This document shows, piece by piece, positions 20,379 to 63,076 of a stretch of 64,000 nt of DNA. Position numbers and translations under genes: made by a program. Position 1 is the stretch's first letter; each line of letters begins with the position of its first letter. Source of the DNA: an uncultured Fibrobacteria bacterium (GTDB taxonomy: Bacteria > Fibrobacterota > Fibrobacteria > UBA11236); the NCBI GenBank assembly GCA_963716395.1, contig OY970309.1, positions 1,792,001 to 1,856,000 of the forward strand. Reading direction: 5' to 3'. The notes under the pieces are model-generated. The model did not search any database. It had not been told where the DNA came from and saw nothing but the letters and a program-made list of their open reading frames with translations.

Positions 20379-20688
20379 TCCAGGGAGTACAATCCGAGAT
20401 CCGGTAACTGGATTACTGCGGCGGCAAAAGTCCGGCCGATGGGAATGCCGGTGGGCGCAAATCCGCCGGCTTCATTTTTCCGTTCCGAAATTCCAAACAA
20501 TCGTCCATCGCCCTCTAAACGAAATGAGGGCGGCTGCACTTCACAATTCCCCGTTTTTCTCAGGATTGATTCAAAAAACCGAATAACCCTTTTGAATCTC
20601 TGTGACCGGCGTCACCAGCCGGCGTAACCGAATTTTTAACATTTCCGTCCAAGAGTTTTAATTCCGTTCCGCGGCGGAAGGATGGGGT

Positions 20689-23600
20689 ATGAAAATGTTG
20701 AGTGTGAAAAACCTTTCCCGATTAATCCTTTTGTCTACCCTGGCCTTTTTCGCCTGGACCTGCAACGTGTCGGATTCGGGCGGCGATACCATCTTGACCC
20801 TGACCGTGGGCGATTCCCTCAAAGCCGCGTCGGGGAAATACGACTCCATTCAAATCAAGGCGGCGGTGGTGAACGGCTCCGACACCACCTATCTGAAACT
20901 CGTTTTCCATGGCGCCTACAGCGATTCTTCGCAATTGCAAAACCTGAATCTCGGCCGGTTGCCCTCCAACGACTTCACCATCATTCTCGTCGGTTATAGC
21001 CAGGGCTCCACGGCTTTGGTGCTGGAATTGCCTTTCAGCAACGGCAAGGCCGGTACGCCCAAGCTCGACACCTTGATTGCGCCACCCGATACGACGCATC
21101 CCCAAAGTCAAAAGCTGCTGATGTGGCTGGCCCCGCCCGACAGCGGGACCTCCTTGTTTCATACCGTTGAGGGCAAGACGCTTTCTTTCCGCGTTATGGC
21201 CAAGGATTCCAACACCAAAGACAGCACGACTTTGCTGCAGATTCAGAATCTATTCCCCGCCGATTGCGGAGTCCCAAGCTATGACACAACCAGCGGAGCC
21301 TTCAGCTTCAAACCCGCCTTTGCCTGCGTGGATTCGGGAGGCGGTTCGGTAAGCGCCGCTCTCAAGTTCTTGGCCAAAGACCAAAGCCATCCCCCGGTTT
21401 ACGACACCTTGAGCGTATCGGTTCAAGTGCTCGACTTCAACAGCGCACCCAAGTGGAAAGTGGACACGGTCAGCCTTACCGGCAAACAGGGCAAAAACGT
21501 ATCGCTGGCTCTCGACAGCCTGTATCTCGGCGATGCCGAAGGCGACTCGGTGGCTTTCACCGCCTCGCTGGGGGTCATGACGCAAAACCCGCTTGCCTGG
21601 AGCTTCACCCCCTCGTTCTCGGATTCGGGCATGAAAACCGTATCGCTCACAGCCACCGATAACCATCACCCTCCGGCGTCATCTTCTTTGGCTCTTAAGC
21701 TCACCATCCAAGACTCGGTGCGCCCGTTTAATGTCATTATCACGTCGCCGCAAAACGGCTATGTGACGCGCGACAGTGTCATCGCCGTGCGTTGGAGTGT
21801 GAACGGCGCGGCGCAAACCACCAATACCACCGAGCATTTGCTGGAAGGTCAAAACGGGGTGGTACGCAGCTACCATGACAACCTGACGAACGCGACGTAT
21901 TCGGATTCCATCACGGTGACGCGCGACACGGTGCCGCCGAACAAACCGGTGGTAAGCGCCGTGTCGCCGACCAACAACCCTACGCCCACCTGGGCTTGGA
22001 AAACGGGCGGAGGCGGCGACGGTTATTTTCGCCATCGGCTCGACACGGCTTCCTTCGTGGATACGGTGGGAACGAAAGATTCCTCGTTCACGCCGTCCAC
22101 CAATCTGGTTGCCGGAACCCATGTTCTCTATGTGGAAGAGCGCGATGATGCCGGCAATTGGTCGGCTCTGTCCGCCGACTCGGTGCGTATCATCTTGACC
22201 GGCCCGGTGGTGGTCATCACTTCCCCAGCCAACAATTACGTGACCCGGCAAGCCAGTGTGTCGGTAGCTTGGACGGTGAATGGCATGGCGCAGACGCCAG
22301 TGATTAAGAGCCTGGTGGAAGGGCCGAATGTGCTCAAGGTGACGGGTCAGGATTCGGCCGGGAATCAAGGTTCGGATTCGATTACGGTAACACGGGATAC
22401 GGTCCCGCCCAATAAGCCGGTGGTGACCGGTCCGGGGCTGACCAATAGTTTGAAGCCGACATGGACCTGGCATAGCGGCGGCGGCAACGGCAGCGGGTAT
22501 TACCGGTTCAAGCTGGATGATACCACGGCATTCACCGACACCTTGGGATTAAACGACAGTTCCTATACGCCGACCGCGAATCTTTCCAACGGAACCCACA
22601 CCTTGTATGTGCAGGAACGCGACGCCGTGGGTAACTGGTCGGTGACAGGCAGCGGCGCCGCCAACGTGGATACCACGCATCCGGCCATCGCCATCACCTC
22701 GCCGCCCAACAATTACGTGACCCGGCAAACGAGCGTGACGGTAAGCTGGACTTTGAGCAATGTGGCGCAGACGCCGGTGATTAAGAACCTGGTGGAAGGG
22801 GCGAACACCCTGACCGTGTCGGGAGCGGATTCAGCGGGGAACAGTGTTTCCGCTTCAATTACGGTCACACGGGATACGGTACCACCCAACAAACCCGTAG
22901 TCACGGGTCCGGGGCTGACCAATAATCTGAAGCCGACGTGGACTTGGCATAGCGGCGGGGACAGCGGCAACGGGTATTACCGCTATAGGTTGGACACCGC
23001 GACCTTTACGGACACCACGGGCCTGGCGGACAGTTCCTATACTCCCGGCACCAACCTCAAACAAGGCCGACATGTGCTTTATCGTCGAAGAACGCGACGT
23101 CGCCGGCAATTGGTCGGCCATGGACAGCAGCGGTATCGCGCAGATCGACACCACAAAACCGGTGGTGAAAATCACTTCACCCACGGCGGGTATCCTGACC
23201 AATGCCAATTCCATCGCCGTGGTATGGACGGTAAATAGTGTGGTGCAAACCCAAAACGACTCGGAAAATCTTACGGGTAAATCGGGTTCGGTGAAAATCG
23301 TGCGTTCGTTTTCCGACAGTCTGGGAAATACCGGGGCAGATTCGGTGACTATTACGGTCGACCATTCGGTGCCGAATGCGCCCTCAATGACAGGACCGAC
23401 TACCCCGACCCGAAATACAACGCCAACTTGGTATTGGAGTACCGGAGGCGGCAGCGGCAATTACCAATATCAAATGGATGCCGCGGGGTGGATGCCAACG
23501 ATCTCGCTTAGCTTCACTCCGGCCAGCGCCCTGAGCTACGGAACGCATACACTATACGTGCAGGAGAAGAATGCTGCAGGTACGTGGTCGGCATCGGCTT

Positions 23601-24952
23601 CGGCGGCAGTATTGATTAAAGCCGCACCTTTGGCGCCGAATGTATCGGTTAACGCAACCTTGACCAATGCGCCCCAATGGACATGGGCCGCGGCAGCAAA
23701 CAGCGGGGGCGATGGCACTTTTGCTTATTCACTCGATAACGCAGCCTATTCCACTGCGCAAAATTTGGCGCGGTATGCCCCGACATTAAGCGACGGATCA
23801 CATACGCTCTGTGTTGAGGAACATGATGTATTGGGACTCGGCGCCGCGGGATGCAAAACTTTGCAAGTCGATCTTACCGCGCCCGCTCTTGCCATTACCG
23901 CGCCGACCGGAATGGCCGCCGTTTTTTCGGGAACGCCGGCCACTACGGGAACCGCTTCGGATGCCAACGGGATCAAGACGTCGACTTATAGCTTAAATGG
24001 GGGGTCGGCTCAAACTTTGACCGTCAGCAACGGGACGTGGTCGTTTGCTCCGACATGGATTGAAGGCCAAAATATTCTATCCGTAACAATTACCGATAAC
24101 GCCGGGAACATAAATATTCAGAAGGATACTGTGTATAAACGATCTCATGTAGTATTTGTTCGCAAAGGTGCGATTGGGACCGGAGATGGGACTTCGTGGG
24201 CTAACGCTTATCCAGAAATGAGCACAGCTTTTAACGCCTGGGGAAAAAATCCTCGGGGAACCCAAGTTTGGGTAGCAGCAGGTACTTATATACCGTTAAA
24301 TGGCGGTGGTTTGAATATCGATTCCTCTATCGCAGTATACGGGGGGTTTCCATCGGATGGTAGTGCTAACGCAATAACCATGAGGAACGTTTCGTCATAT
24401 CAGACCGATGTTCAAGATCCTGTCAACGGCGGAAACCTTTTATACTTGGGCGGCAACAATATTACGATAAACGGGTTCATTTTTGAACAAGCCAATAGCG
24501 TTGCAGTTATTAGCGGTTCACAAATTAATATAGTTAACTGCACAATACGTAAATTTACCAAAACCAATAGTATCCCATTAATGATTACTTCAGATGGTTC
24601 TACTTTGGTAGATAGCTGTAACTTCACAAGTAATCAAACCACCGAAATTGGTGCTTTAGTTGGATCGGGGTTTACACTAAGTAACTCTCAGTTCCAAAAT
24701 AACACATCCAATAATATTGGCGGATATAGTGGCGGGGCAATGCAAATTTACGGAGGAACGGTGAAAATGTTTGGCACCGTATTTTCACAAAATTATGGTA
24801 CTGACCCCTCGAATAGCCTGAATAATATTCAGGTATATGTTTATAGCGGAACGTTAAATTATCAGACCGGCACCGTGTATTTTAATGAGGTAAACAATAC
24901 TAATTCCGGTATCTCAACTGCTGGGGGTACGGGAGTGGCCGATTCCTATTAA
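20689..24952 (+). CDS. large surface lipoprotein with cadherin/Ig-like repeats and C-terminal beta-helix-like domain (frameshift ~23080)
   Basis: ORFs 20689..23238 and 23072..24952 join: the repeat motif H.LYV.ERD.AGNWS is broken by one extra base. AWTC lipobox. C-terminal FVRKGAIGTGDGTSWANAY...VWVAAGTY. Confidence 0.8.
21720..23160 (+). repeat. three ~480-bp intragenic tandem modules
   Basis: Recurrent ITSP.N.YVTR...ITVTRDTVPPNKPVV...PTW.W..GGG...ERD..GNWS. Confidence 0.85.
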
Positions 24953-24985
24953 ATTTCCCGTTTGACTGTGAATTTATGACCCTTA

Positions 24986-27640
24986 ATGCCTAATCCCGCC
25001 CCCACCCCCGTTGACACCTTACCCTATCCGGCGCCTTGCTGCCGGGATTGCCAATGGAAACCCTGCCGTTACCTGGGTGGCAGCCCGCGCATACGGGGCT
25101 TTCACTACCTCGGCCCCTGGCCCAGGCTGCCGAAGGATTGCCCGGCCTGGCTGAAAAACCAGACACATCTGGATCTCGAAAAGGTTTTGCAAAGACTGAA
25201 CCGCAACGAGTTGGAAGAGCTTTACCGCACCGGACCTCCCCGCGTCACGGGATATCCGCTCCGCCCCGAAGATTCTCCCCTTCACCTTCTCGCCCACGAA
25301 ATTCCCCATCACCGGGAATCGTGGCTGGTGGTCGCGCCCGGCTCGCATCTCGACCATGCCGTGCATGCCCTGTACTGGGCCTATACGCGCGCCTTGGCCC
25401 GCGCCAACCCTAAAAGGAAAAAGGTCGAGGATGTAGATGCAGCGGCGGCGCAAAGCAAGGAGGCAGAACCGGCGCTTTTGAACCCCGGTTTTGTAAGCAT
25501 CGAGGATGAGAAAAAACCCGGCAGTCCCGAAACCACCATCACCGAGGCTGACATCGGAGAGGTGGTGCATCTCAAAGTGGATACCCAAGGCTTGCAACCC
25601 GCCGATAACATATTGTTCCAGATATTCCTCAAGGGTGAGAACGGGCAGGCGGATGTTTTCATTGAAAACGTATTCGGCAACGCCGGTAAAACCAAATACG
25701 GAAGCGATTGGACCACGCGCGAAGATGACGCCGCCGCGGTGCATTACCATATCGGCGACGGTCATGCGGAAAGAAAATACCGGCCGGGAAAAGACACCCT
25801 CTACTTCATCGCCAAGGTAAAGTCAAAAGGGCTGGAGCAGAGAAGCGGTGCGCTGCAACTGACGAAGACCGAAGAAGCGATTCTGTATTATTGGCCCGGC
25901 GATGCGGATAATGAAGGTGAATATCTCCTGTTGGAAAAAAGCGATGACATCGACGACGTGATGACCGAAGCCGGAACCATGAATTCAACTCGTGAAAAAC
26001 TGATGGAAGCGCGTGCGGCTGCCGGCGTCGATGCCAAGGAAAAAGCCGACAAGGTTTCGGATGCGGCCGAAAAGATGGACTCTTTGTTGAACGAAGCCGC
26101 GCCCGATCCCGAAAAAGCCTTGCTGGAACTTTATCTGGTCAAAAAGGGTGCGCGAAAAGAAAAAAGTCTGAAAAGTCTGATTTATATCCGTTCCCATCTC
26201 CGTAACGGCAAGCAAGCCCGAGGCCATTGGGCCAAAGAGCGCGACGCCACGGTGCGCAAGCAATTGGAGAAAGCCAAAAAAGATGAGGACAAGCGTGTTT
26301 CTCAGGAATTTAAGGTCAAGCTTTGGGATTGGCATAAGGAAGAATCGGGATCCTGGTTACCGCACTGGAAATTTGCGCAGAAAACCTTTTCATCGGAAAA
26401 ACCGGCCCAGCCTGGCGAGCGGTTTTCCGGTGCGGCGGAAGCGCAATTCGCACGGTTTTATGCGGGCGCAAAAAGTTCCGCGGATTTTGATCTGAAAGAC
26501 GCCAAGGTCGATTTCGGCGGTTCCGCCGAAGTTTCGGTGTCTTTGGTGCAAGGCAAGGCCAAAGGCACCTGGCAATTACCCAATGATCACGGCATCAATC
26601 TTTTTCCCAAATTCACCGGAACCGATAAAGCTGAAGCCGCAGCCGTGGGCAAGGAATTGCGACTGCGACTGGCGGTATCTTTGCAGGCCTATGGGTTCGT
26701 GGGAGTCTCGGCTTCAGCGGCCTTGCATTTTCCCAACTTGGATTTGGGTGGCAAAAAAGCCCCGCCTTTGCGTAAGCCTGCTTCCGATCCAAGCGGGAAA
26801 TTCGACGCCAATGTTTCCGGCGACGGCCAAGCCTTTGCGGGGGCCTCAGCCGGCGGCGGCGTAGAACTGGATTTGCAATGGGGCAAAACCGCCCAGTTTT
26901 TCGACAGCCTCGGCGATATGGAATTTACCGCGGATGCCTGTTTTGGAGCGGGCGGTGCAATCGGATTTATGATCGGATTCAAAGACGGCAAATTTCATAT
27001 TGAAATGAAGGCTGGTTTGGTGACGGGGCTTGGTGCCAAGGGATTCGTGAACGTGGCCGTGAGTGCCGAAGAAATGCTGAAGATATTGGGCTATTGTTTT
27101 AAAAACGTAAATCACCATTATCTCGACAATGTGCAACCCGATGCCTTTGATAATTATGTGGCCTATGGGTTCTGGCTGGCGGTGAAATACGTTCCGGAAT
27201 TGCGGGAGTCATTCGAAGTGTTTACCGGAGCCTCGGCCTTCACCAATTGGCTGGAAACCACGGGAAGCAAAATTTTTGGGGATCACGATACGAAAAAGGA
27301 TTTATTGGAATCTCTGCTCCAAAACGACAAGGCGCTGCATCAATGTGCACCGCAAACACTGGGTCAGATTTTGCGGACCATTATGGTGAGCCATGAAGAT
27401 GGGGACGAAGACAAAATCATCCACGTGCTTTCTATTCCAGAATCGGATCATGAATTCAAATGGACGATTCGCTGGGCTTCGGGGTTGGAGGAGTTGGACC
27501 ATGCGGTGCGCATTAACAAACACGTGAGCGATGATTTGAAGAAGCGGACATTAGAAGCGGGAGCAAATCGGATTAAAGGATTTAGCGATAAAGAAAACTA
27601 TCAAAAACAAATCAGTAGGCTGTTTGATGGTTCGAGATAA
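24986..27640 (+). CDS. putative polymorphic toxin/effector, 884 aa
   Basis: Modular: Cys-rich N-terminus, Ig-like/helical middle, Gly/Ala-rich hydrophobic strands, helical tip. Followed by an immunity-like gene, and its 3' part is repeated downstream with a variant tip. Function inferred. Confidence 0.6.
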   Translation: MPNPAPTPVDTLPYPAPCCRDCQWKPCRYLGGSPRIRGFHYLGPWPRLPKDCPAWLKNQTHLDLEKVLQRLNRNELEELYRTGPPRVTGYPLRPEDSPLHLLAHEIPHHRESWLVVAPGSHLDHAVHALYWAYTRALARANPKRKKVEDVDAAAAQSKEAEPALLNPGFVSIEDEKKPGSPETTITEADIGEVVHLKVDTQGLQPADNILFQIFLKGENGQADVFIENVFGNAGKTKYGSDWTTREDDAAAVHYHIGDGHAERKYRPGKDTLYFIAKVKSKGLEQRSGALQLTKTEEAILYYWPGDADNEGEYLLLEKSDDIDDVMTEAGTMNSTREKLMEARAAAGVDAKEKADKVSDAAEKMDSLLNEAAPDPEKALLELYLVKKGARKEKSLKSLIYIRSHLRNGKQARGHWAKERDATVRKQLEKAKKDEDKRVSQEFKVKLWDWHKEESGSWLPHWKFAQKTFSSEKPAQPGERFSGAAEAQFARFYAGAKSSADFDLKDAKVDFGGSAEVSVSLVQGKAKGTWQLPNDHGINLFPKFTGTDKAEAAAVGKELRLRLAVSLQAYGFVGVSASAALHFPNLDLGGKKAPPLRKPASDPSGKFDANVSGDGQAFAGASAGGGVELDLQWGKTAQFFDSLGDMEFTADACFGAGGAIGFMIGFKDGKFHIEMKAGLVTGLGAKGFVNVAVSAEEMLKILGYCFKNVNHHYLDNVQPDAFDNYVAYGFWLAVKYVPELRESFEVFTGASAFTNWLETTGSKIFGDHDTKKDLLESLLQNDKALHQCAPQTLGQILRTIMVSHEDGDEDKIIHVLSIPESDHEFKWTIRWASGLEELDHAVRINKHVSDDLKKRTLEAGANRIKGFSDKENYQKQISRLFDGSR

Positions 27641-27644
27641 TAAA

Positions 27645-28464
27645 ATGACTACAACATATTTAATCTTCTTTACAGCAATTTTTGGTTCAAGCGGTATTCC
27701 GGAAAAGTGCATTGAAAAAAAAATAGGAATTAATATCAGGCAAGAGTGTCTCACATTTTATTCAAATGGAAACAAAAAAGACAGTAGTACTACAATTATT
27801 ATTCCAGGCAAAAAACAAGGCTTTCATGATAGTGAATATGTTGCAGACGGGGAACAAAAAACATGGTATCGATCAGGCCGATTAAAATGGGTTGCCAAGT
27901 ATAAAATGGATTGTTTGGTGGATACAAATCTTCGAATATTATGAAAATGGAAATCCATGGTATATCGAACCCTATAAGGACTGCAAAAGAAACGGCCTTT
28001 CCCAACGCTTCGATTCAACCGGCGGATTGCTTTTTGAGGGCGAATTCAAAAACGGTGATCAAATTGGGTTGCAAAAGGAATTCTGGCGCAAAGGCGTATT
28101 GAAAGATGAATCGTTTTACAACGATTCCCAAACTCGGGTGGATTGGGAAAAATCGTGGTATATCAGCGGAAAATTAAGGCGAGATATGAAAATTAGTGGC
28201 GAGATAAAAGAAATCAAAAATTACGCCCCGAACGGAAAACTGGTTCAGCACACCCACGCCAAAGCGGCAGATGGGAATCTGATTACTGGCGAAAGTTTCG
28301 ATCCCGACGGAAAACCCACGGGCAAGGTGACGCAGGGCAACGGCTCGCTGACCACCATCGGTTTCAACGATTCGACCCTGGTCATGTATTCGAAGTACAG
28401 CTATAACTACAAAGACGGGTGGCCGGGCAAGATGAAACAAATATTCCCGCCGCCGCCGAAATGA
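27645..28464 (+). CDS. MORN-variant (YwqK-like) repeat exported protein, putative immunity 1 (frameshift ~27927)
   Basis: Hydrophobic N-terminus, WYxSG/YxNG repeats. Removing one A joins ORFs 27624..27944 and 27892..28464 (VDTIFEYYENG aligns with IDTSFAFYPNG of copy 2). Confidence 0.75.
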
Positions 28465-29186
28465 ATTCGCCGGATGCCTGTTTTGGAGCGGGCGGTGCAA
28501 TCGGATTTATGATCGGATTCAAAGACGGCAAATTTCATATTGAAATGAAGGCTGGTTTGGTGACGGGGCTTGGTGCCAAGGGATTCGTGAACGTGGCCGC
28601 GAGTGCCGAAGAAATGCTGAAGATATTGGGCTATTGTTTTAAAAACGTAAATCACCATTATCTCGACAATGTGCAACCCGATGCCTTTGATAATTATGTG
28701 GCCTATGGATTCTGGCTGGCGGTGAAATATGTTCCGGAATTGCGGGAGTCGTTCGAAGTGTTTACCGGAGCCTCGGCCTTCACCAATTGGCTGGAAACCA
28801 CGGGAAGCAAAATTTTTGGTAAAAGCATAAATAAAGATCAGCTGCTTGAATCCCTGCTTCAAAACGATGAGGCACTGCATCAATGTGCTCCGCAAACCCT
28901 GGGTCAGATTTTGCGGACCATTATGGTGAGCCATGAAGATGGGGACGAAGACAAAATCATCCACGTGCTTTCTATTCCAGAATCGGATCATGAATTCAAA
29001 TGGACGATTCGCTGGGCTTCGGGGTTGGAGGAGTTGGACCATGCGGTGCGCATTAACAAACACATGAGCGATGATTTAAAGAAGAGAGCGTTGGAGGAAG
29101 GGATTACAGCACTAAAATCGTTCGGCGACTTCCCAAAAAATCCAGAGAATCTATTAGCAATATTCAGCAAATTCGGCTTGCAATGA
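28461..29186 (+). CDS. orphan C-terminal toxin module (variant tip), 241 aa
   Basis: Near-identical to the C-terminal ~236 aa of 24986..27640 except for two patches. In-frame ATG at 28461 overlaps the upstream TGA. Confidence 0.75.
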   Translation: MNSPDACFGAGGAIGFMIGFKDGKFHIEMKAGLVTGLGAKGFVNVAASAEEMLKILGYCFKNVNHHYLDNVQPDAFDNYVAYGFWLAVKYVPELRESFEVFTGASAFTNWLETTGSKIFGKSINKDQLLESLLQNDEALHQCAPQTLGQILRTIMVSHEDGDEDKIIHVLSIPESDHEFKWTIRWASGLEELDHAVRINKHMSDDLKKRALEEGITALKSFGDFPKNPENLLAIFSKFGLQ

Positions 29187-30022
29187 AGTTAACAGTTATT
29201 TTGACAACACTTTCCACTTTAATTGCCCAGGAATCGGAGTTGAAAAAATGTGAGATCAAAAAGGATGGTTCAAAAATCGTTCAAACTTGCGTTTCCTTCT
29301 ATAAAAACGGTGCGCAAAAAGATAGCTCAAATGAGTTAGTACTTCCGGGCCATAAATGGGGTGTTCATGATAGCGAATACTTGCTCGACGGAGAAGCAAA
29401 ACATTGGTATCCGAGTGGAAATTTGAAAAGTCGGTCAATGTTCAGAGCCGATAGAACATTTGAATTTGGTTGTTCTATCGACACGTCGTTCGCTTTTTAT
29501 CCAAATGGGAAAGAAGAAGAAATTATTCCTTATAAAGGCTGTAAGCGAAACGGCCTTTCCCAACGCTTCGATTCAACCGGCGGATTGCTTTTTGAGGGCG
29601 AATTCAAAAACGGGAAAAAAGTCGGCTTGCAAAAAGAATTCTGGCGTAAAGGTGTACCCAAACATGAAATGTTTTATGATAGCTCAACTTTTAAGGCTAA
29701 CGAGGAAAAGTCCTGGTACATCAACGGCAAATTGAGCGAAGAAATAAGCATCGAAAACGGCATCGAAGAAACAAGAGATTACGCCCCAAACGGAAAACTG
29801 GTTCAGCACACCCACGCCAAAGCGGCAGATGGGAATCTGATTACTGGCGAAAGTTTCGATCCCGACGGAAAACCCACGGGCAAGGTGACGCAGGGCAACG
29901 GCTCGCTGACCACCATTGGTTTCAACGATTCGACCCTGGTCATGTATTCGAAGTACAGCTATAACTACAAAGACGGGTGGCCGGGGAAGATGAAACAACT
30001 ATTCCCGCCGCCGCCGAAATGA
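29183..30022 (+). CDS. MORN-variant (YwqK-like) repeat exported protein, putative immunity 2
   Basis: Signal peptide MKLTVILTTLSTLIA, repeats FYKNG/WYPSG/FYPNG/GEFKNG/WYING. ATGA overlap with the orphan tip. Confidence 0.8.
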   Translation: MKLTVILTTLSTLIAQESELKKCEIKKDGSKIVQTCVSFYKNGAQKDSSNELVLPGHKWGVHDSEYLLDGEAKHWYPSGNLKSRSMFRADRTFEFGCSIDTSFAFYPNGKEEEIIPYKGCKRNGLSQRFDSTGGLLFEGEFKNGKKVGLQKEFWRKGVPKHEMFYDSSTFKANEEKSWYINGKLSEEISIENGIEETRDYAPNGKLVQHTHAKAADGNLITGESFDPDGKPTGKVTQGNGSLTTIGFNDSTLVMYSKYSYNYKDGWPGKMKQLFPPPPK

Positions 30023-30149
30023 ATTCGCCGGATGCCGCCTGCAGATCGATCCGTTTTGCCGATCAAAGACAACAACGGCCATACCGCCCTGGTCGAAGCC
30101 GAACGCTGCGGGAAAAAAGCGAACGCCGATTTTTTACTCCGAGCGATGG

Positions 30150-30192
30150 GAAAATAAACCCCGACCCGGCCTTGCGGCCGGCGCCGGGATTG
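30150..30192 (-). terminator. probable intrinsic terminator
   Basis: ccggcc-ttgc-ggccgg hairpin with an A-rich run on its left (U-tract on the minus strand). Confidence 0.45.
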
Positions 30193-30215
30193 GGACCGAA
30201 CCGAAAACGCGACGG

Positions 30216-30404
30216 CTAGGCCGTCACATCCACGCTTCCGCCCACGCCGGGCATATTGGGAGCGCTGCCGGCCGGAGCCAGGGAATTGAGAAGGTCCGAG
30301 TTTTCCTGTTGCGACAAGTCCTGACCCTTTTTGAGCAATGTTGCATCCTTGCTGCTCATGTTCTGGGTGTCGGTGCTTTGGGTGACGGCGGATAATGGTG
30401 ACAT
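30216..30404 (-). CDS. YjfB-like putative motility small protein
   Basis: LLKKGQD...DLLNSL...P..GGSVDVTA pattern. Strong RBS AAGGAGG. Confidence 0.7.
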   Translation of the reverse strand: MSPLSAVTQSTDTQNMSSKDATLLKKGQDLSQQENSDLLNSLAPAGSAPNMPGVGGSVDVTA

Positions 30405-30524
30405 GCTGTTCCTCCTTGTCTTCGCATCTTAGAGCCCGGAAAGCGCGGCGACAAGTCGGAATGCCGGTAATTTCTCCCCGTGGTTTTCGGACTTTGAGGG
30501 GTCCCGTTGAGTAAATTAGGCCAG

Positions 30525-31916
30525 ATGGATCGGAAGTACGTCATCGAAGGCGGCCGCTATCTCAAAGGCGAGATCGCCGTGCGCGGCGCCAAGAATGCGG
30601 TCACCAAGGAAATGGTGGCTGCCTTGCTCGCCGCGGGCAAATCCACCTTGCGCAATGTTCCCGACATCGGCGACGTCGACATCACGCGCCGGCTGCTCGC
30701 GGCCCTGGGATGCCGGGTCGAACACGAGCGTGAAGCCGGAATCTTATGCGTGCACGGCGAAACTTTGGATACTCCCGAAGTTCCGGCCGAGTACTCGGGA
30801 TTAAACCGCATTCCCATTCTGCTGGCCGGCGTGCTCTTGCACCGCTTCGGCCGCGCCGTCATACCCGTGATGGGCGGCTGCGAAATCGGCGCGCGTCCCA
30901 TCGACTTCCATCTGGCGGGATTGCAGGAACTGGGCGCCCGCGTCGAATACCGCGACGGGGCTTACCGCTTCGAAGCCAAGCGGCTGACCGGCAAACGCAT
31001 CGTGCTGCCTTATCCCAGCGTGGGCGCCACCGAGAACCTGCTCATGGCGGCCGTGCTGGCCCAGGGCACCACCGAAATCCGCAATGCGGCCATCGAGCCC
31101 GAGATCGCCGATTTGGCCTTGATGCTGCAGGCCATGGGCGCCATCATTTCCCAGGAAACCGATCGCGCCTGGGTGGTGCAGGGCGTTGACGCCTTGCGGC
31201 CCGTGGACCACCGCGTGATCAACGATCGCATCGAAGCCGCTTCGTTCGCGGCCTCGGCTGTGGCCACACGCGGCGACGTTTTCATCCGCGGCGCCGACCA
31301 ATTGCACCTGCTCACCTTTCTCAACTGGCTGCGCCGCGCCGGCGGGGAATTTGAGGTCAAGGCCGACGGCATCCGCTTTTACGGCCGCGGAAGTAAATTA
31401 CGGCCCATCGCCGTGGAAACCGGCGTGCATCCGGGGCTGATGACCGATTGGCAGCAGCCGCTCGTCATGCTGCTGACCCAGGCCGACGGCATGTCGGTGA
31501 TTCACGAAACCGTGTACGAAAACCGCTTCGGCTATGTCGAAGCGTTGAACCGCATGGGTGCGCGCATCCAGCTTTTTCAGGAATGCCTGGGCGGCAAGGA
31601 GTGCCGCTTTCGCCATCTTGGCCATCTACATTCGGCGGTGATTCTAGGGCCGACACCCCTGCGCGGCGCCGCCATCGAAATTCCGGATTTGCGCGCGGGT
31701 TTTTCCTATTTGGTGGCCGCGGCTTTGGCCCAAGGCCGCACCACGCTGTCGGGCATCCGCTACATCGAGCGCGGCTACGACCGGGTGGTGGAGAAATTCC
31801 GCGCTTTGGGATTGCCGATTGAAGTCGTAGAGCAAGAGACGCGCCGCACGGCGCCCGATCCGGCCGTTGCGGCGGGCGCGCGCAATCCCACGGACAATTC
31901 CTCGGGCTCTTCCTGA
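30525..31916 (+). CDS. murA: UDP-N-acetylglucosamine 1-carboxyvinyltransferase
   Basis: GAKNA, GGCEIGARPIDFH (catalytic Cys), PSVGATEN, DRIEAAS, ETVYENRF, DLRAG, IERGY. Confidence 0.96.
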   Translation: MDRKYVIEGGRYLKGEIAVRGAKNAVTKEMVAALLAAGKSTLRNVPDIGDVDITRRLLAALGCRVEHEREAGILCVHGETLDTPEVPAEYSGLNRIPILLAGVLLHRFGRAVIPVMGGCEIGARPIDFHLAGLQELGARVEYRDGAYRFEAKRLTGKRIVLPYPSVGATENLLMAAVLAQGTTEIRNAAIEPEIADLALMLQAMGAIISQETDRAWVVQGVDALRPVDHRVINDRIEAASFAASAVATRGDVFIRGADQLHLLTFLNWLRRAGGEFEVKADGIRFYGRGSKLRPIAVETGVHPGLMTDWQQPLVMLLTQADGMSVIHETVYENRFGYVEALNRMGARIQLFQECLGGKECRFRHLGHLHSAVILGPTPLRGAAIEIPDLRAGFSYLVAAALAQGRTTLSGIRYIERGYDRVVEKFRALGLPIEVVEQETRRTAPDPAVAAGARNPTDNSSGSS

Positions 31917-63003: not shown

Positions 63004-63076
63004 GCCACTTTAGCTCAGTTGGTAGAGCAACGCTTTCGTAAAGCGTGGGTCCTCGGTTCGAGTCCGGGAAGTGGCT
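63004..63076 (+). tRNA. tRNA-Thr(CGT)
   Basis: Acceptor GCCACTT/AAGTGGC, D-arm GCTC-AGTTGGTA-GAGC, anticodon stem ACGCT-TTCGTAA-AGCGT, T-loop TTCGAGT. CCA not encoded. Confidence 0.97.

Follow-up and report, generated by a model that had tools for sequence, protein, structure and literature searches.

A probable type VI secretion effector locus with exported MORN_2 partners and a tandemly duplicated spare cassette in an uncultured Fibrobacteria bacterium

Four forward-strand genes or gene copies follow one another in a 64,000-nucleotide stretch of DNA (the window) from an uncultured Fibrobacteria bacterium (contig OY970309.1). The ORF list gives a full-length candidate effector gene of 884 aa at 24986..27640, with no Pfam or NCBIfam family. 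Next come a first MORN_2 partner gene split by a frameshift (27645..28464, from ORFs and alignment to the intact copy), an orphan repeat of the final ~238 effector codons with an altered tail (28471..29186, from the repeat alignment), and an intact gene for an exported 279-aa MORN_2 protein (29183..30022, from the ORF and Pfam). This protein is the candidate for immunity in the orphan cassette, and the start of its gene overlaps the stop of the orphan copy. ORF and repeat evidence uphold the order toxin, immunity, orphan toxin end, orphan immunity that a sequence-only reading of the window had proposed. They also agree with that reading that the 884-aa protein has no signal peptide (its N-terminus is not hydrophobic) and, by Pfam, no Rhs, FHA, LXG, VgrG or PAAR domain. 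Large genes for Ig-like surface proteins lie just 5′ of the effector, both here and at a twin locus; the Ig-like gene 5′ of the effector is, like the first MORN gene, split.

The two MORN genes differ in their state. The N-terminus of the intact protein resembles a signal peptide, and the protein matches Pfam MORN_2 (PF07661; E 9e-17, 59.6 bits against a gathering cut-off of 29.6). The first gene is spread over two reading frames, as ORFs 27624/27645-27944 and 27892-28464, which on alignment correspond to residues 21-103 and 103-279 of the intact protein; a 1-nt frameshift, with the frame switching at ~27928-27931 and outside any homopolymer run, separates them, and the second piece still matches MORN_2 (E 2.6e-12). 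The earlier description of two exported MORN proteins therefore holds for the second copy and for the signal-peptide-like N-termini of the partners, but not for the first copy as a single intact gene.

The repeat is a 1.54-kb tandem duplication with units of 1540 and 1558 nt, similar far above chance and bounded by the 8-mer CGGATGCC, which marks the left boundary of unit 1 (26931..26938) and recurs at 28471-28478 and 30029-30036. Duplication at this 8-bp microhomology added a promoterless spare cassette made up of the effector's C-terminal end and an immunity gene. The units form a mosaic in which blocks of 98-100% identity sit beside blocks of 48-73% identity. The main variable block (27536..27988, 48% identical to 29076-29546 by block-wise alignment) spans the effector tail and the first ~115 MORN codons; in the blocks on either side of it identity is 99-100%. 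The orphan C-terminal end lacks its own start codon; the GTG from which the ORF finder reads it lies within the 3′ end of the first MORN gene. As the sequence-only reading had it, this is a second toxin end with a different tip: it is 92% identical to its parent over 219 aa before the tails diverge, the differences falling in a ~10-aa patch and the last ~30 aa.

Arrays of such cassettes accompany four paralogous loci in this genome, and orphan cassettes are present in two other genomes. The four paralogues share 89% nucleotide identity over 567 nt at the N-terminus, and their modules are ~44-46% identical as proteins (~44% by tblastn, 46% in the genome search). These cassettes resemble the Vibrio cholerae T6SS immunity arrays and the orphan cassettes known from CDI, Rhs and MafB loci in that each is a promoterless duplicate of the C-terminal end of a toxin, paired with an immunity gene and placed 3′ of a full-length gene; their flanks are identical to the expressed copy, so they could be swapped in by homologous recombination. 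In contrast to CDI, Rhs and MafB, the locus lacks a boundary of Rhs, FHA, LXG or PT-VENN type, and the toxin domains of the cassettes are 91-99% identical to the expressed one; only the ~30-aa tail, the ~10-aa patch and the immunity protein's N-terminal half change. The label of polymorphic toxin system, applied earlier to this locus, fits as to downstream orphan cassettes but fails as to unrelated alternative toxin domains, and we rejected it in its CDI/Rhs sense. Cassette variation confined to the tail looks new.

The effector itself has two parts. Module alignment and AF2 models place a Cys-rich motif (C-x2-C-x4-C...CP) and an Ig-like beta-sandwich in residues 1-~295. This N-terminal module, which looks new, occurs alone, ahead of the toxin module or ahead of other C-termini. 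Residues ~300-884 form a conserved toxin module of ~580 aa, predicted by AF2 to run from helices through Gly/Ala-rich long beta-hairpins (~514-692) to an 11-helix C-domain (694-880), at the end of which lies the variable tail. The toxin module matched nothing in Pfam, NCBIfam or the PDB, and had 299 relatives at E<=1e-3 among 1.84 billion representatives. The suggestion that the toxin family may be new for this lineage stands only insofar as these databases have no match for it. The module is widespread, including in proteobacterial vgrG-linked effectors with FGE-like lipoprotein partners, and the Tse3-Tsi3 locus type has already been published.

The sequence-only reading saw no secretion genes in the window, and in this genome TssC, Hcp, VgrG and PAAR were matched only outside it. 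A genome-wide search for T6SS genes other than clpV and tssJ recovered a cluster encoding TssK, L, M, A, B, C, Hcp, TssE, F and G at C1:3309537-3323283, its ORFs open and matching their families end to end, as well as one VgrG and two PAAR proteins. Relatives of the toxin module carry the same association. Among 50 relatives scanned, two are fused to VgrG (Phage_GPD), two to Hcp, and one each to PAAR, DUF2345 and VasX_N/MIX. The module profile matches an Aliivibrio salmonicida protein encoded 3′ of hcp-vgrG-DUF4123 (hhalign probability 100%, E 5e-43, 450 columns) and a Cronobacter protein whose gene lies 3′ of vgrG within a T6SS cluster (99.9%, E 3.5e-33). V. campbellii and Citrobacter relatives are likewise 3′ of vgrG, a position found, with or without DUF4123, in 4/4 annotated proteobacterial loci (two further loci are unannotated); vgrG-linked relatives also include Klebsiella.

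Within Fibrobacterota, vgrG adjoins the effector in 2 of 20 loci (E 1e-72 and 6e-70), one of which also has a PAAR gene nearby. The module family is present in 49 and TssC in 115 of 296 genomes. All 49 family-positive genomes are TssC-positive and none of the 181 TssC-negative genomes has the family, a co-occurrence (cross-tabulated by hand, one unpublished genome, G254, included) that overstates the link to T6SS because kin genomes are not independent. Counting against a T6SS reading, none of this genome's four loci has a vgrG or adaptor gene beside it. Even so, the cluster, the VgrG, Hcp and PAAR fusions, the vgrG-adjacent relatives and the restriction of the family to TssC-positive genomes of the phylum contradict the earlier suggestion of a new delivery route. 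The literature we searched held no description of Fibrobacterota T6SS effectors.

The pairing of effector and MORN-like protein recurs: a neighbourhood survey found a ~250-aa signal-peptide ORF 3′ of the effector, often overlapping its stop, in 12/20 Fibrobacterota neighbourhoods (MORN-like ORFs were found with an HMM built in this analysis), and 13 of 14 Fibrobacterota partners match Pfam MORN_2. In Bacillus subtilis YwqJ-YwqK, a secreted toxin has a protein of MORN_2 repeat fold as its antitoxin or immunity partner. The present proteins share with YwqK the fold and the place beside a toxin, but they have signal peptides and their toxin is a probable T6SS effector of a Gram-negative phylum, whereas YwqK is the cytoplasmic partner of an LXG toxin. 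MORN_2 proteins bear the annotation "YwqK family antitoxin" in the available portions of PMC11005410 and bioRxiv 10.1101/534297.

In the proteobacterial relatives, and only there, the partners are FGE-like (FGE-sulfatase) lipoproteins, members of a family that Lopez et al. (bioRxiv 10.1101/2021.05.21.445229) showed by experiment to be T6SS immunity. That study treats Tse3-Tsi3 of Acinetobacter baumannii, and Tse3AB also appears in PMC6833914. Tse3 is a large (~800-1000 aa) T6SS cargo effector without a recognised domain. Its gene lies 3′ of vgrG, in some loci along with one for a DUF4123 adaptor; an exported partner, whose genes are often arrayed as divergent copies, binds and neutralises it. 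The Aliivibrio, V. campbellii, Cronobacter and Citrobacter members have this locus type with FGE-like lipoprotein partners, and in two proteobacterial members the partner lies on the opposite strand, as the Tse3-Tsi3 paper also describes. By analogy with the locus type common to these relatives, the toxin module is probably of the Acinetobacter Tse3 type. Our locus departs from that type in several respects: its partner is MORN_2 and not FGE-like, its effector begins with the Cys-rich and Ig-like module, its effector genes lie away from vgrG, and each unit of its arrays carries the C-terminal end of the effector as well as an immunity gene. MORN_2 in place of an FGE-like protein as the exported partner looks new.

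Taken together, we consider it likely that the T6SS of this genome delivers the effector as cargo and that the MORN_2 (YwqK-like) proteins are its periplasmic immunity partners. The N-terminal ~295 aa would serve to load the effector on the spike or tube of the T6SS, and the ~580-aa C-terminal module, once injected into a neighbour's periplasm, would act non-catalytically, its Gly/Ala-rich long beta-hairpins most likely damaging the membrane. In the producer's periplasm, the exported MORN_2 protein would bind and block the effector's C-terminal helical domain or its tail, and the tail and the MORN N-terminal half may co-vary as a specificity pair. We infer toxicity, binding and the membrane-damaging mechanism alike, the last in line with the sequence-only reading. 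The hydropathy of the 884-aa protein speaks against this picture, none of its 19-aa stretches attaining the level usual for a transmembrane helix (maximum 1.46). A non-enzymatic action is suggested by conservation over 149 relatives, where conserved positions are nearly all G, P, W, F, A or L, and by the absence, in Vibrio and Cronobacter members, of the candidate His, Ser and Asp common to close relatives.

The effector may instead belong to the proposed family but no longer be made or fired, the cassettes being leftovers kept at most for the intact immunity genes as a defence against neighbours. We regard such decay as possible though doubtful. The first MORN gene is broken both here and at the twin locus, where the effector tail is also truncated and the second orphan broken, and at loci 3 and 4 the full-length gene appears to be frameshifted, so the locus may be decaying; the split Ig-like gene and the scarcity of the system in same-genus genomes (family in 0/11, TssC in 1/11) point the same way. 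Against this, the 884-aa frame is fully open, its DNA is 98.6% identical to the twin over 2.6 kb, the ORFs of the T6SS cluster are open and match their families over the full length, and three MORN genes of this type are intact.

Alternatively, within the same T6SS effector-immunity locus, the module could be a periplasmic enzyme such as a lipase or cell-wall hydrolase and not a membrane permeabiliser. Immunity to pore-formers is usually small and hydrophobic (the available part of the Tke5 paper, PMC13133200), so soluble, exported partners, like those of Tle/Tli and Tae/Tai pairs, better suit an enzyme-type effector. Relatives are fused to OmpA, PG_binding_1, LysM, Amidase_2 and M23 domains, although the accessible portion of PMC10673891 indicates that LysM and PG_binding_1 fusions may be VgrG-loading domains and not signs of a periplasmic target. 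Close relatives also retain a G-x-S stretch (F571-G573-S575), and a table in PMC6833914 gives a GXSXG motif for Acinetobacter Tse3. We nevertheless judge an enzyme unlikely: R490 is the sole polar residue conserved at >=0.9 from position 400 onward in the 149 relatives, the candidate catalytic residues are not kept in Vibrio and Cronobacter, and neither Pfam and NCBIfam nor the structural matches yielded an enzyme.

Least probable by far is that the 884-aa protein and its MORN partners function in the cell envelope or in adhesion, with repeats that serve surface variation, as silent pilin cassettes do: Fusobacterium MORN2 proteins are linked to adhesins (in the available parts of PMC11005410 and bioRxiv 10.1101/534297), Ig-like surface protein genes adjoin both this and the twin locus, and the mosaic of identical and divergent blocks would suit antigenic-variation cassettes, but the 884-aa protein has no signal peptide, its relatives are VgrG-, Hcp- or PAAR-fused or lie in vgrG loci, and the family is confined to T6SS-encoding genomes of the phylum.

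Returning to the T6SS effector with MORN_2 immunity, we tentatively advance a more specific proposal of two linked parts, less likely as a whole to be right than wrong. Residues 1-~295 would be an undescribed Fibrobacterota T6SS loading or marker domain comparable to MIX, FIX, RIX or PIX. Immunity specificity, in turn, would be set by the ~30-aa C-terminal tail co-varying with the immunity protein's N-terminal half, spare cassettes swapping that determinant only and leaving the toxin unchanged, and one and the same toxin module would have acquired exported immunity partners of two unrelated folds, MORN_2 in Fibrobacterota and an FGE-like one in Proteobacteria. Though widespread, the toxin module has neither a family model nor a solved structure. 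If it is of Tse3 type, the locus adds a second, unrelated immunity fold to that effector, and its near-identical toxins with different tails would be a natural set for mapping immunity binding and toxin action. The conserved N-terminal module could mark further effectors in Fibrobacterota.

We also considered the BTH_I2691/VasX/Tke5 family, which resembles the 884-aa protein in size, in its proposed non-enzymatic membrane action and, in the accessible part of PMC13133200, in N-terminal accessories seen among our relatives (MIX/VasX_N, LysM, PAAR, VgrG, DUF2345). We rejected it: the family model NF041559 did not match the 884-aa protein at E<=0.1, and among nine relatives it matched only the MIX stretch of P0065 (E 0.071). 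Hydrophobic helices are absent here; 19-aa Kyte-Doolittle windows of the 884-aa protein gave no transmembrane helix (highest mean 1.46), and the AF2 models place beta-hairpins in the toxin region. The predicted order is beta-rich then helical, whereas Tke5 is helical then beta-rich (in the portion of PMC13133200 available), and the partners here are soluble, exported proteins and not membrane proteins.

The locus built around the 884-aa protein (24986–27640, + strand) probably encodes a type VI secretion system (T6SS) effector and immunity proteins, and carries a spare cassette that arose by duplication. An earlier, sequence-only reading had found no secretion genes in the window, and indeed all the relevant genes lie outside it. 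A search of the host genome for T6SS components, as that reading suggested, recovered TssK, TssL, TssM, TssA, TssB, TssC, Hcp, TssE, TssF and TssG in a single cluster, one VgrG away from this cluster, and two PAAR proteins. Across 296 Fibrobacterota genomes, the profile of the effector family matched 49 and TssC matched 115; by hand cross-tabulation, each of the 49 family-bearing genomes has TssC, and the family is absent from all 181 genomes without TssC, although kin genomes in these tallies are not independent, some matches are partial, and one unpublished genome (G254) is counted in. Among the 11 other genomes of the window's own genus, the family was found in none and TssC in one. A vgrG gene adjoins the effector in two of 20 Fibrobacterota neighborhoods, one of which also has a PAAR gene.

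Plasmids provided further linkage. Searching plasmid records by tblastn with P0065, a relative with a MIX stretch, returned 17 records. In Aliivibrio salmonicida pVSAL840, hcp, vgrG and DUF4123 genes precede a family member annotated as a 'LysM domain-containing protein', and an FGE-sulfatase gene comes next, encoded on the other strand; Vibrio campbellii shares this layout from vgrG on, with hcp not annotated in the stretch shown. In Cronobacter and Citrobacter, the homolog follows vgrG within the main T6SS cluster, with a PAAR gene and either one or two FGE-sulfatase genes behind it (two further plasmid records with a family member carry no annotation). A profile of the conserved toxin module matched the Aliivibrio protein with 100% probability (E 5e-43, 450 columns, reaching into the C-terminal tail) and the Cronobacter protein with 99.9% (E 3.5e-33). 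The proposal that both toxin family and delivery route may be new for this lineage therefore fails for the route and is at most partly right for the family: the module extends to Aliivibrio, Vibrio, Cronobacter and Citrobacter, and the genome's own T6SS, the vgrG-linked relatives, and fusions of the module to VgrG, Hcp and PAAR domains point to a known route.

A word-based protein search with the effector retrieved own-genome paralogs alone, and a related-locus search with the effector as a single protein returned no match; exhaustive HMMER searching found 299 proteins at E<=1e-3, 135 at E<=1e-10, and 33 at E<=1e-30. The part they have in common spans residues ~295–870, and their N-termini otherwise differ. 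Pfam scanning of 50 relatives identified OmpA (13), PG_binding_1 (9), Phage_GPD (VgrG), T6SS_HCP and SH3_3 (2 each), and PAAR, DUF2345, VasX_N, LysM, Amidase_2 and Peptidase_M23 (1 each); the only name among cluster members was 'Rhs element Vgr protein', for a VgrG fusion. The effector's own residues 1–~295 make up a distinct module, in which an Ig-like sandwich accompanies a conserved C-x2-C-x4-C and an invariant Cys-Pro; this module also stands alone or precedes OmpA/PG_binding and other C-termini. A MIX-like motif was considered for this N-terminus and dropped, since the sequence does not fit it and matched no model.

Elsewhere in the genome, behind its only VgrG gene, come a 491-aa ORF, in which we spotted a peptidoglycan-binding-like motif by eye, and two similar exported ~300-aa ORFs (C1:2676661–2684566, on the genome's own contig); this may be another effector-immunity set. 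The two near-identical PAAR proteins (C1:54800–55069 and C1:1181011–1181280; 578 and 615 aa) have C-terminal extensions and are probably specialized PAAR effectors.

To survey the candidate immunity partners, we built an HMM from three own-genome MORN proteins. In 12 of 20 Fibrobacterota neighborhoods it matched an ORF of ~250 aa that begins with a signal-peptide-like stretch, in 11 of them directly 3' of the effector gene and often overlapping its stop; in the twelfth (L048), the matching ORF sits in a downstream orphan cassette. Of the remaining eight, two have a similar but shortened ORF and six have none. Pfam MORN_2 was detected in 13 of 14 aligned Fibrobacterota partners, and an orphan C-terminal fragment with a MORN gene behind it recurs in two other genomes (L035 and L048), so the recurrence of immunity-like genes beside homologs, as expected by the earlier reading, is borne out. 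MORN_2 proteins carry the annotation 'YwqK family antitoxin' in two reports (PMC11005410; bioRxiv 10.1101/534297). A complex prediction of the orphan C-terminal tip with the mature intact MORN protein scored 0.00, which is uninformative either way.

Proteobacterial partners are instead FGE-sulfatase-domain proteins with lipoprotein signal peptides. On a Cronobacter dublinensis plasmid (L098, 7743–9685), the effector homolog precedes a tandem pair of FGE-like lipoprotein genes whose stops and starts overlap, an immunity array resembling those reported for Tsi3. According to a preprint (bioRxiv 10.1101/2021.05.21.445229), Tsi3 binds and neutralizes Tse3, an Acinetobacter T6SS effector of unknown function, and Tsi3 homologs usually occur in arrays of divergent copies, often on the strand opposite the tse3 homolog and near vgrG, hcp, PAAR and DUF4123 genes; Tse3AB is described as a 1001-aa protein without a conserved domain (PMC6833914). 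The proteobacterial members thus have the locus type published for Tse3-Tsi3, and from this shared locus type we infer that the two families are probably the same. Three features look new: the MORN_2 partner in place of an FGE-like one, the effector's N-terminal module, and cassettes that differ only in a short tail and a small patch of the toxin and in the corresponding half of the immunity protein. The literature listings and passages searched yielded no description of MORN immunity with T6SS or of Fibrobacteres T6SS effectors.

The export of both MORN_2 and FGE-like partners is the clearest pointer to a periplasmic or envelope site of action for the effector. LysM and PG_binding_1 fusions may mark VgrG loading rather than the target (PMC10673891). 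Membership of the VasX/Tke5 (BTH_I2691) family was rejected, as NF041559 matched neither the effector nor nine relatives, except for the MIX stretch of one relative. An AlphaFold2 model of the whole effector (103 sequences, pLDDT 71.6) contains a confident Ig-like sandwich (residues 163–316), helices (319–447), a Gly/Ala-rich region of long beta-hairpins with low-confidence loops (514–692), and a confident 11-helix domain (694–880); a second model of residues 500–884 agrees with it (pLDDT 74.5, pTM 0.76). Against the PDB, Foldseek gave no match at E<=1e-3 for either model, the whole-protein one drawing only immunoglobulin-like matches to its sandwich, and protein and profile sequence searches gave no meaningful match; the ESM Atlas returned only unnamed clusters at 0.84, under the useful range. 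Nearly every position conserved over 149 relatives holds Gly, Pro, Trp, Phe, Ala or Leu, and the few polar residues common to close relatives are lost in the Vibrio member, which disfavors an enzyme and argues for a structural or membrane-inserting action. Non-enzymatic membrane damage is accordingly our preferred guess, but a tentative one: the effector's highest 19-aa hydropathy (1.46) is too low for a classical transmembrane helix, and soluble exported partners are more usual with enzyme effectors.

The overall gene layout is as first described, with one difference: a frameshift splits the first MORN gene into two + strand ORFs in different frames (27624–27944, 106 aa; 27892–28464, 190 aa, MORN_2 (PF07661) E 2.6e-12). 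Downstream lie the 255-aa orphan C-terminal ORF (28419–29186, +), whose GTG start, as called by the ORF finder, falls inside the preceding gene, and the intact 279-aa MORN protein (29183–30022, +; PF07661 E 9e-17); Pfam found no domain in the 884-aa or the 255-aa protein. Because the 106-aa and 190-aa ORFs align to consecutive parts of the intact protein (residues 21–103, 47% identity; residues 103–279, 79%), they belong to one broken gene. The frame switches at ~27928–27931, within ACAAATCTTCG, where there is no homopolymer run. Public reads from three soil-metagenome runs of one study, which matched at most 0.20 of the words, gave short low-depth contigs lying outside the frameshift site and spanning no joints. 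One such contig matches 29900–30023 exactly and then continues into unrelated sequence, which weakly suggests that a related strain may differ in the junction downstream of the MORN gene. Across 24500–30600, predicted promoters (8 versus 6.3±2.3 expected) and terminators (9 versus 9.8±3.0) occurred at chance level and carry no information on orphan expression.

The cassettes are tandem copies (26931–28470, 1540 nt; 28471–30028, 1558 nt), and the 8-mer CGGATGCC at 26931, 28471 and 30029 marks a duplication at short microhomology. Identity between copies alternates: in the effector's C-terminal region, 99% (26936–27265), 73% (27266–27355, containing a ~10-aa effector patch) and 99% (27356–27535); 48% over the effector's last ~30 aa and the MORN protein's first ~115 aa (27536–27988); and, within the MORN gene, 100% (27989–28048), 65% (28049–28228) and 98% (28229–28468). 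Such alternation is not simple divergence after duplication; it fits gene conversion, or the swapping of a variable core that is flanked by identical sequence. A low-G+C island at 24000–30000 (42–57% versus about 60% in the flanks) takes in the end of an Ig-like gene and all of the toxin-immunity locus; the nearby sequence has no tRNA gene, the window's only one being at 63004–63076.

The window is part of one contig of 3.75 Mb, and its MurA shares 75–84% identity with MurA from metagenome-assembled genomes labeled Fibrobacteria or Fibrobacterota. The genome encodes four full-length paralogs of the effector, including the window copy: a twin at C1:3236202–3238847 (98.6% DNA identity over 2.6 kb) and two diverged copies at C1:1126853–1128997 and C1:387419–389557 (about 44–46% protein identity; tblastn ~44%). 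Their first ~190 codons share 89% DNA identity while the remainder has diverged, and all four are trailed by arrays of C-terminal-fragment and MORN-like cassettes, many of them broken. At the twin locus, the MORN gene directly after the full-length gene is degraded and those of the orphan cassettes are intact. The intact copies may cross-protect, which is conceivable because toxin cores are 91–99% identical, or the effectors may be out of use. The two diverged loci (C1:1121000–1129000; C1:381500–389600, minus strand) each have at least four cassettes after the effector, comprising a ~117-aa C-terminal fragment and a ~250-aa exported MORN-like ORF, with many degraded, and their full-length genes seem frameshifted ahead of the C-terminal domain. 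Upstream of the window's effector, a large lipoprotein-like gene with Ig-like (Big_13) domains (20689–24952) is probably also split by a frameshift into overlapping ORFs (20689–23238 and 23072–24952). The stretch at 20601–23461 is 96% identical to that upstream of the twin locus, and weaker copies of this Ig-like region adjoin the fourth locus and lie near the PAAR gene at ~C1:1.18 Mb.
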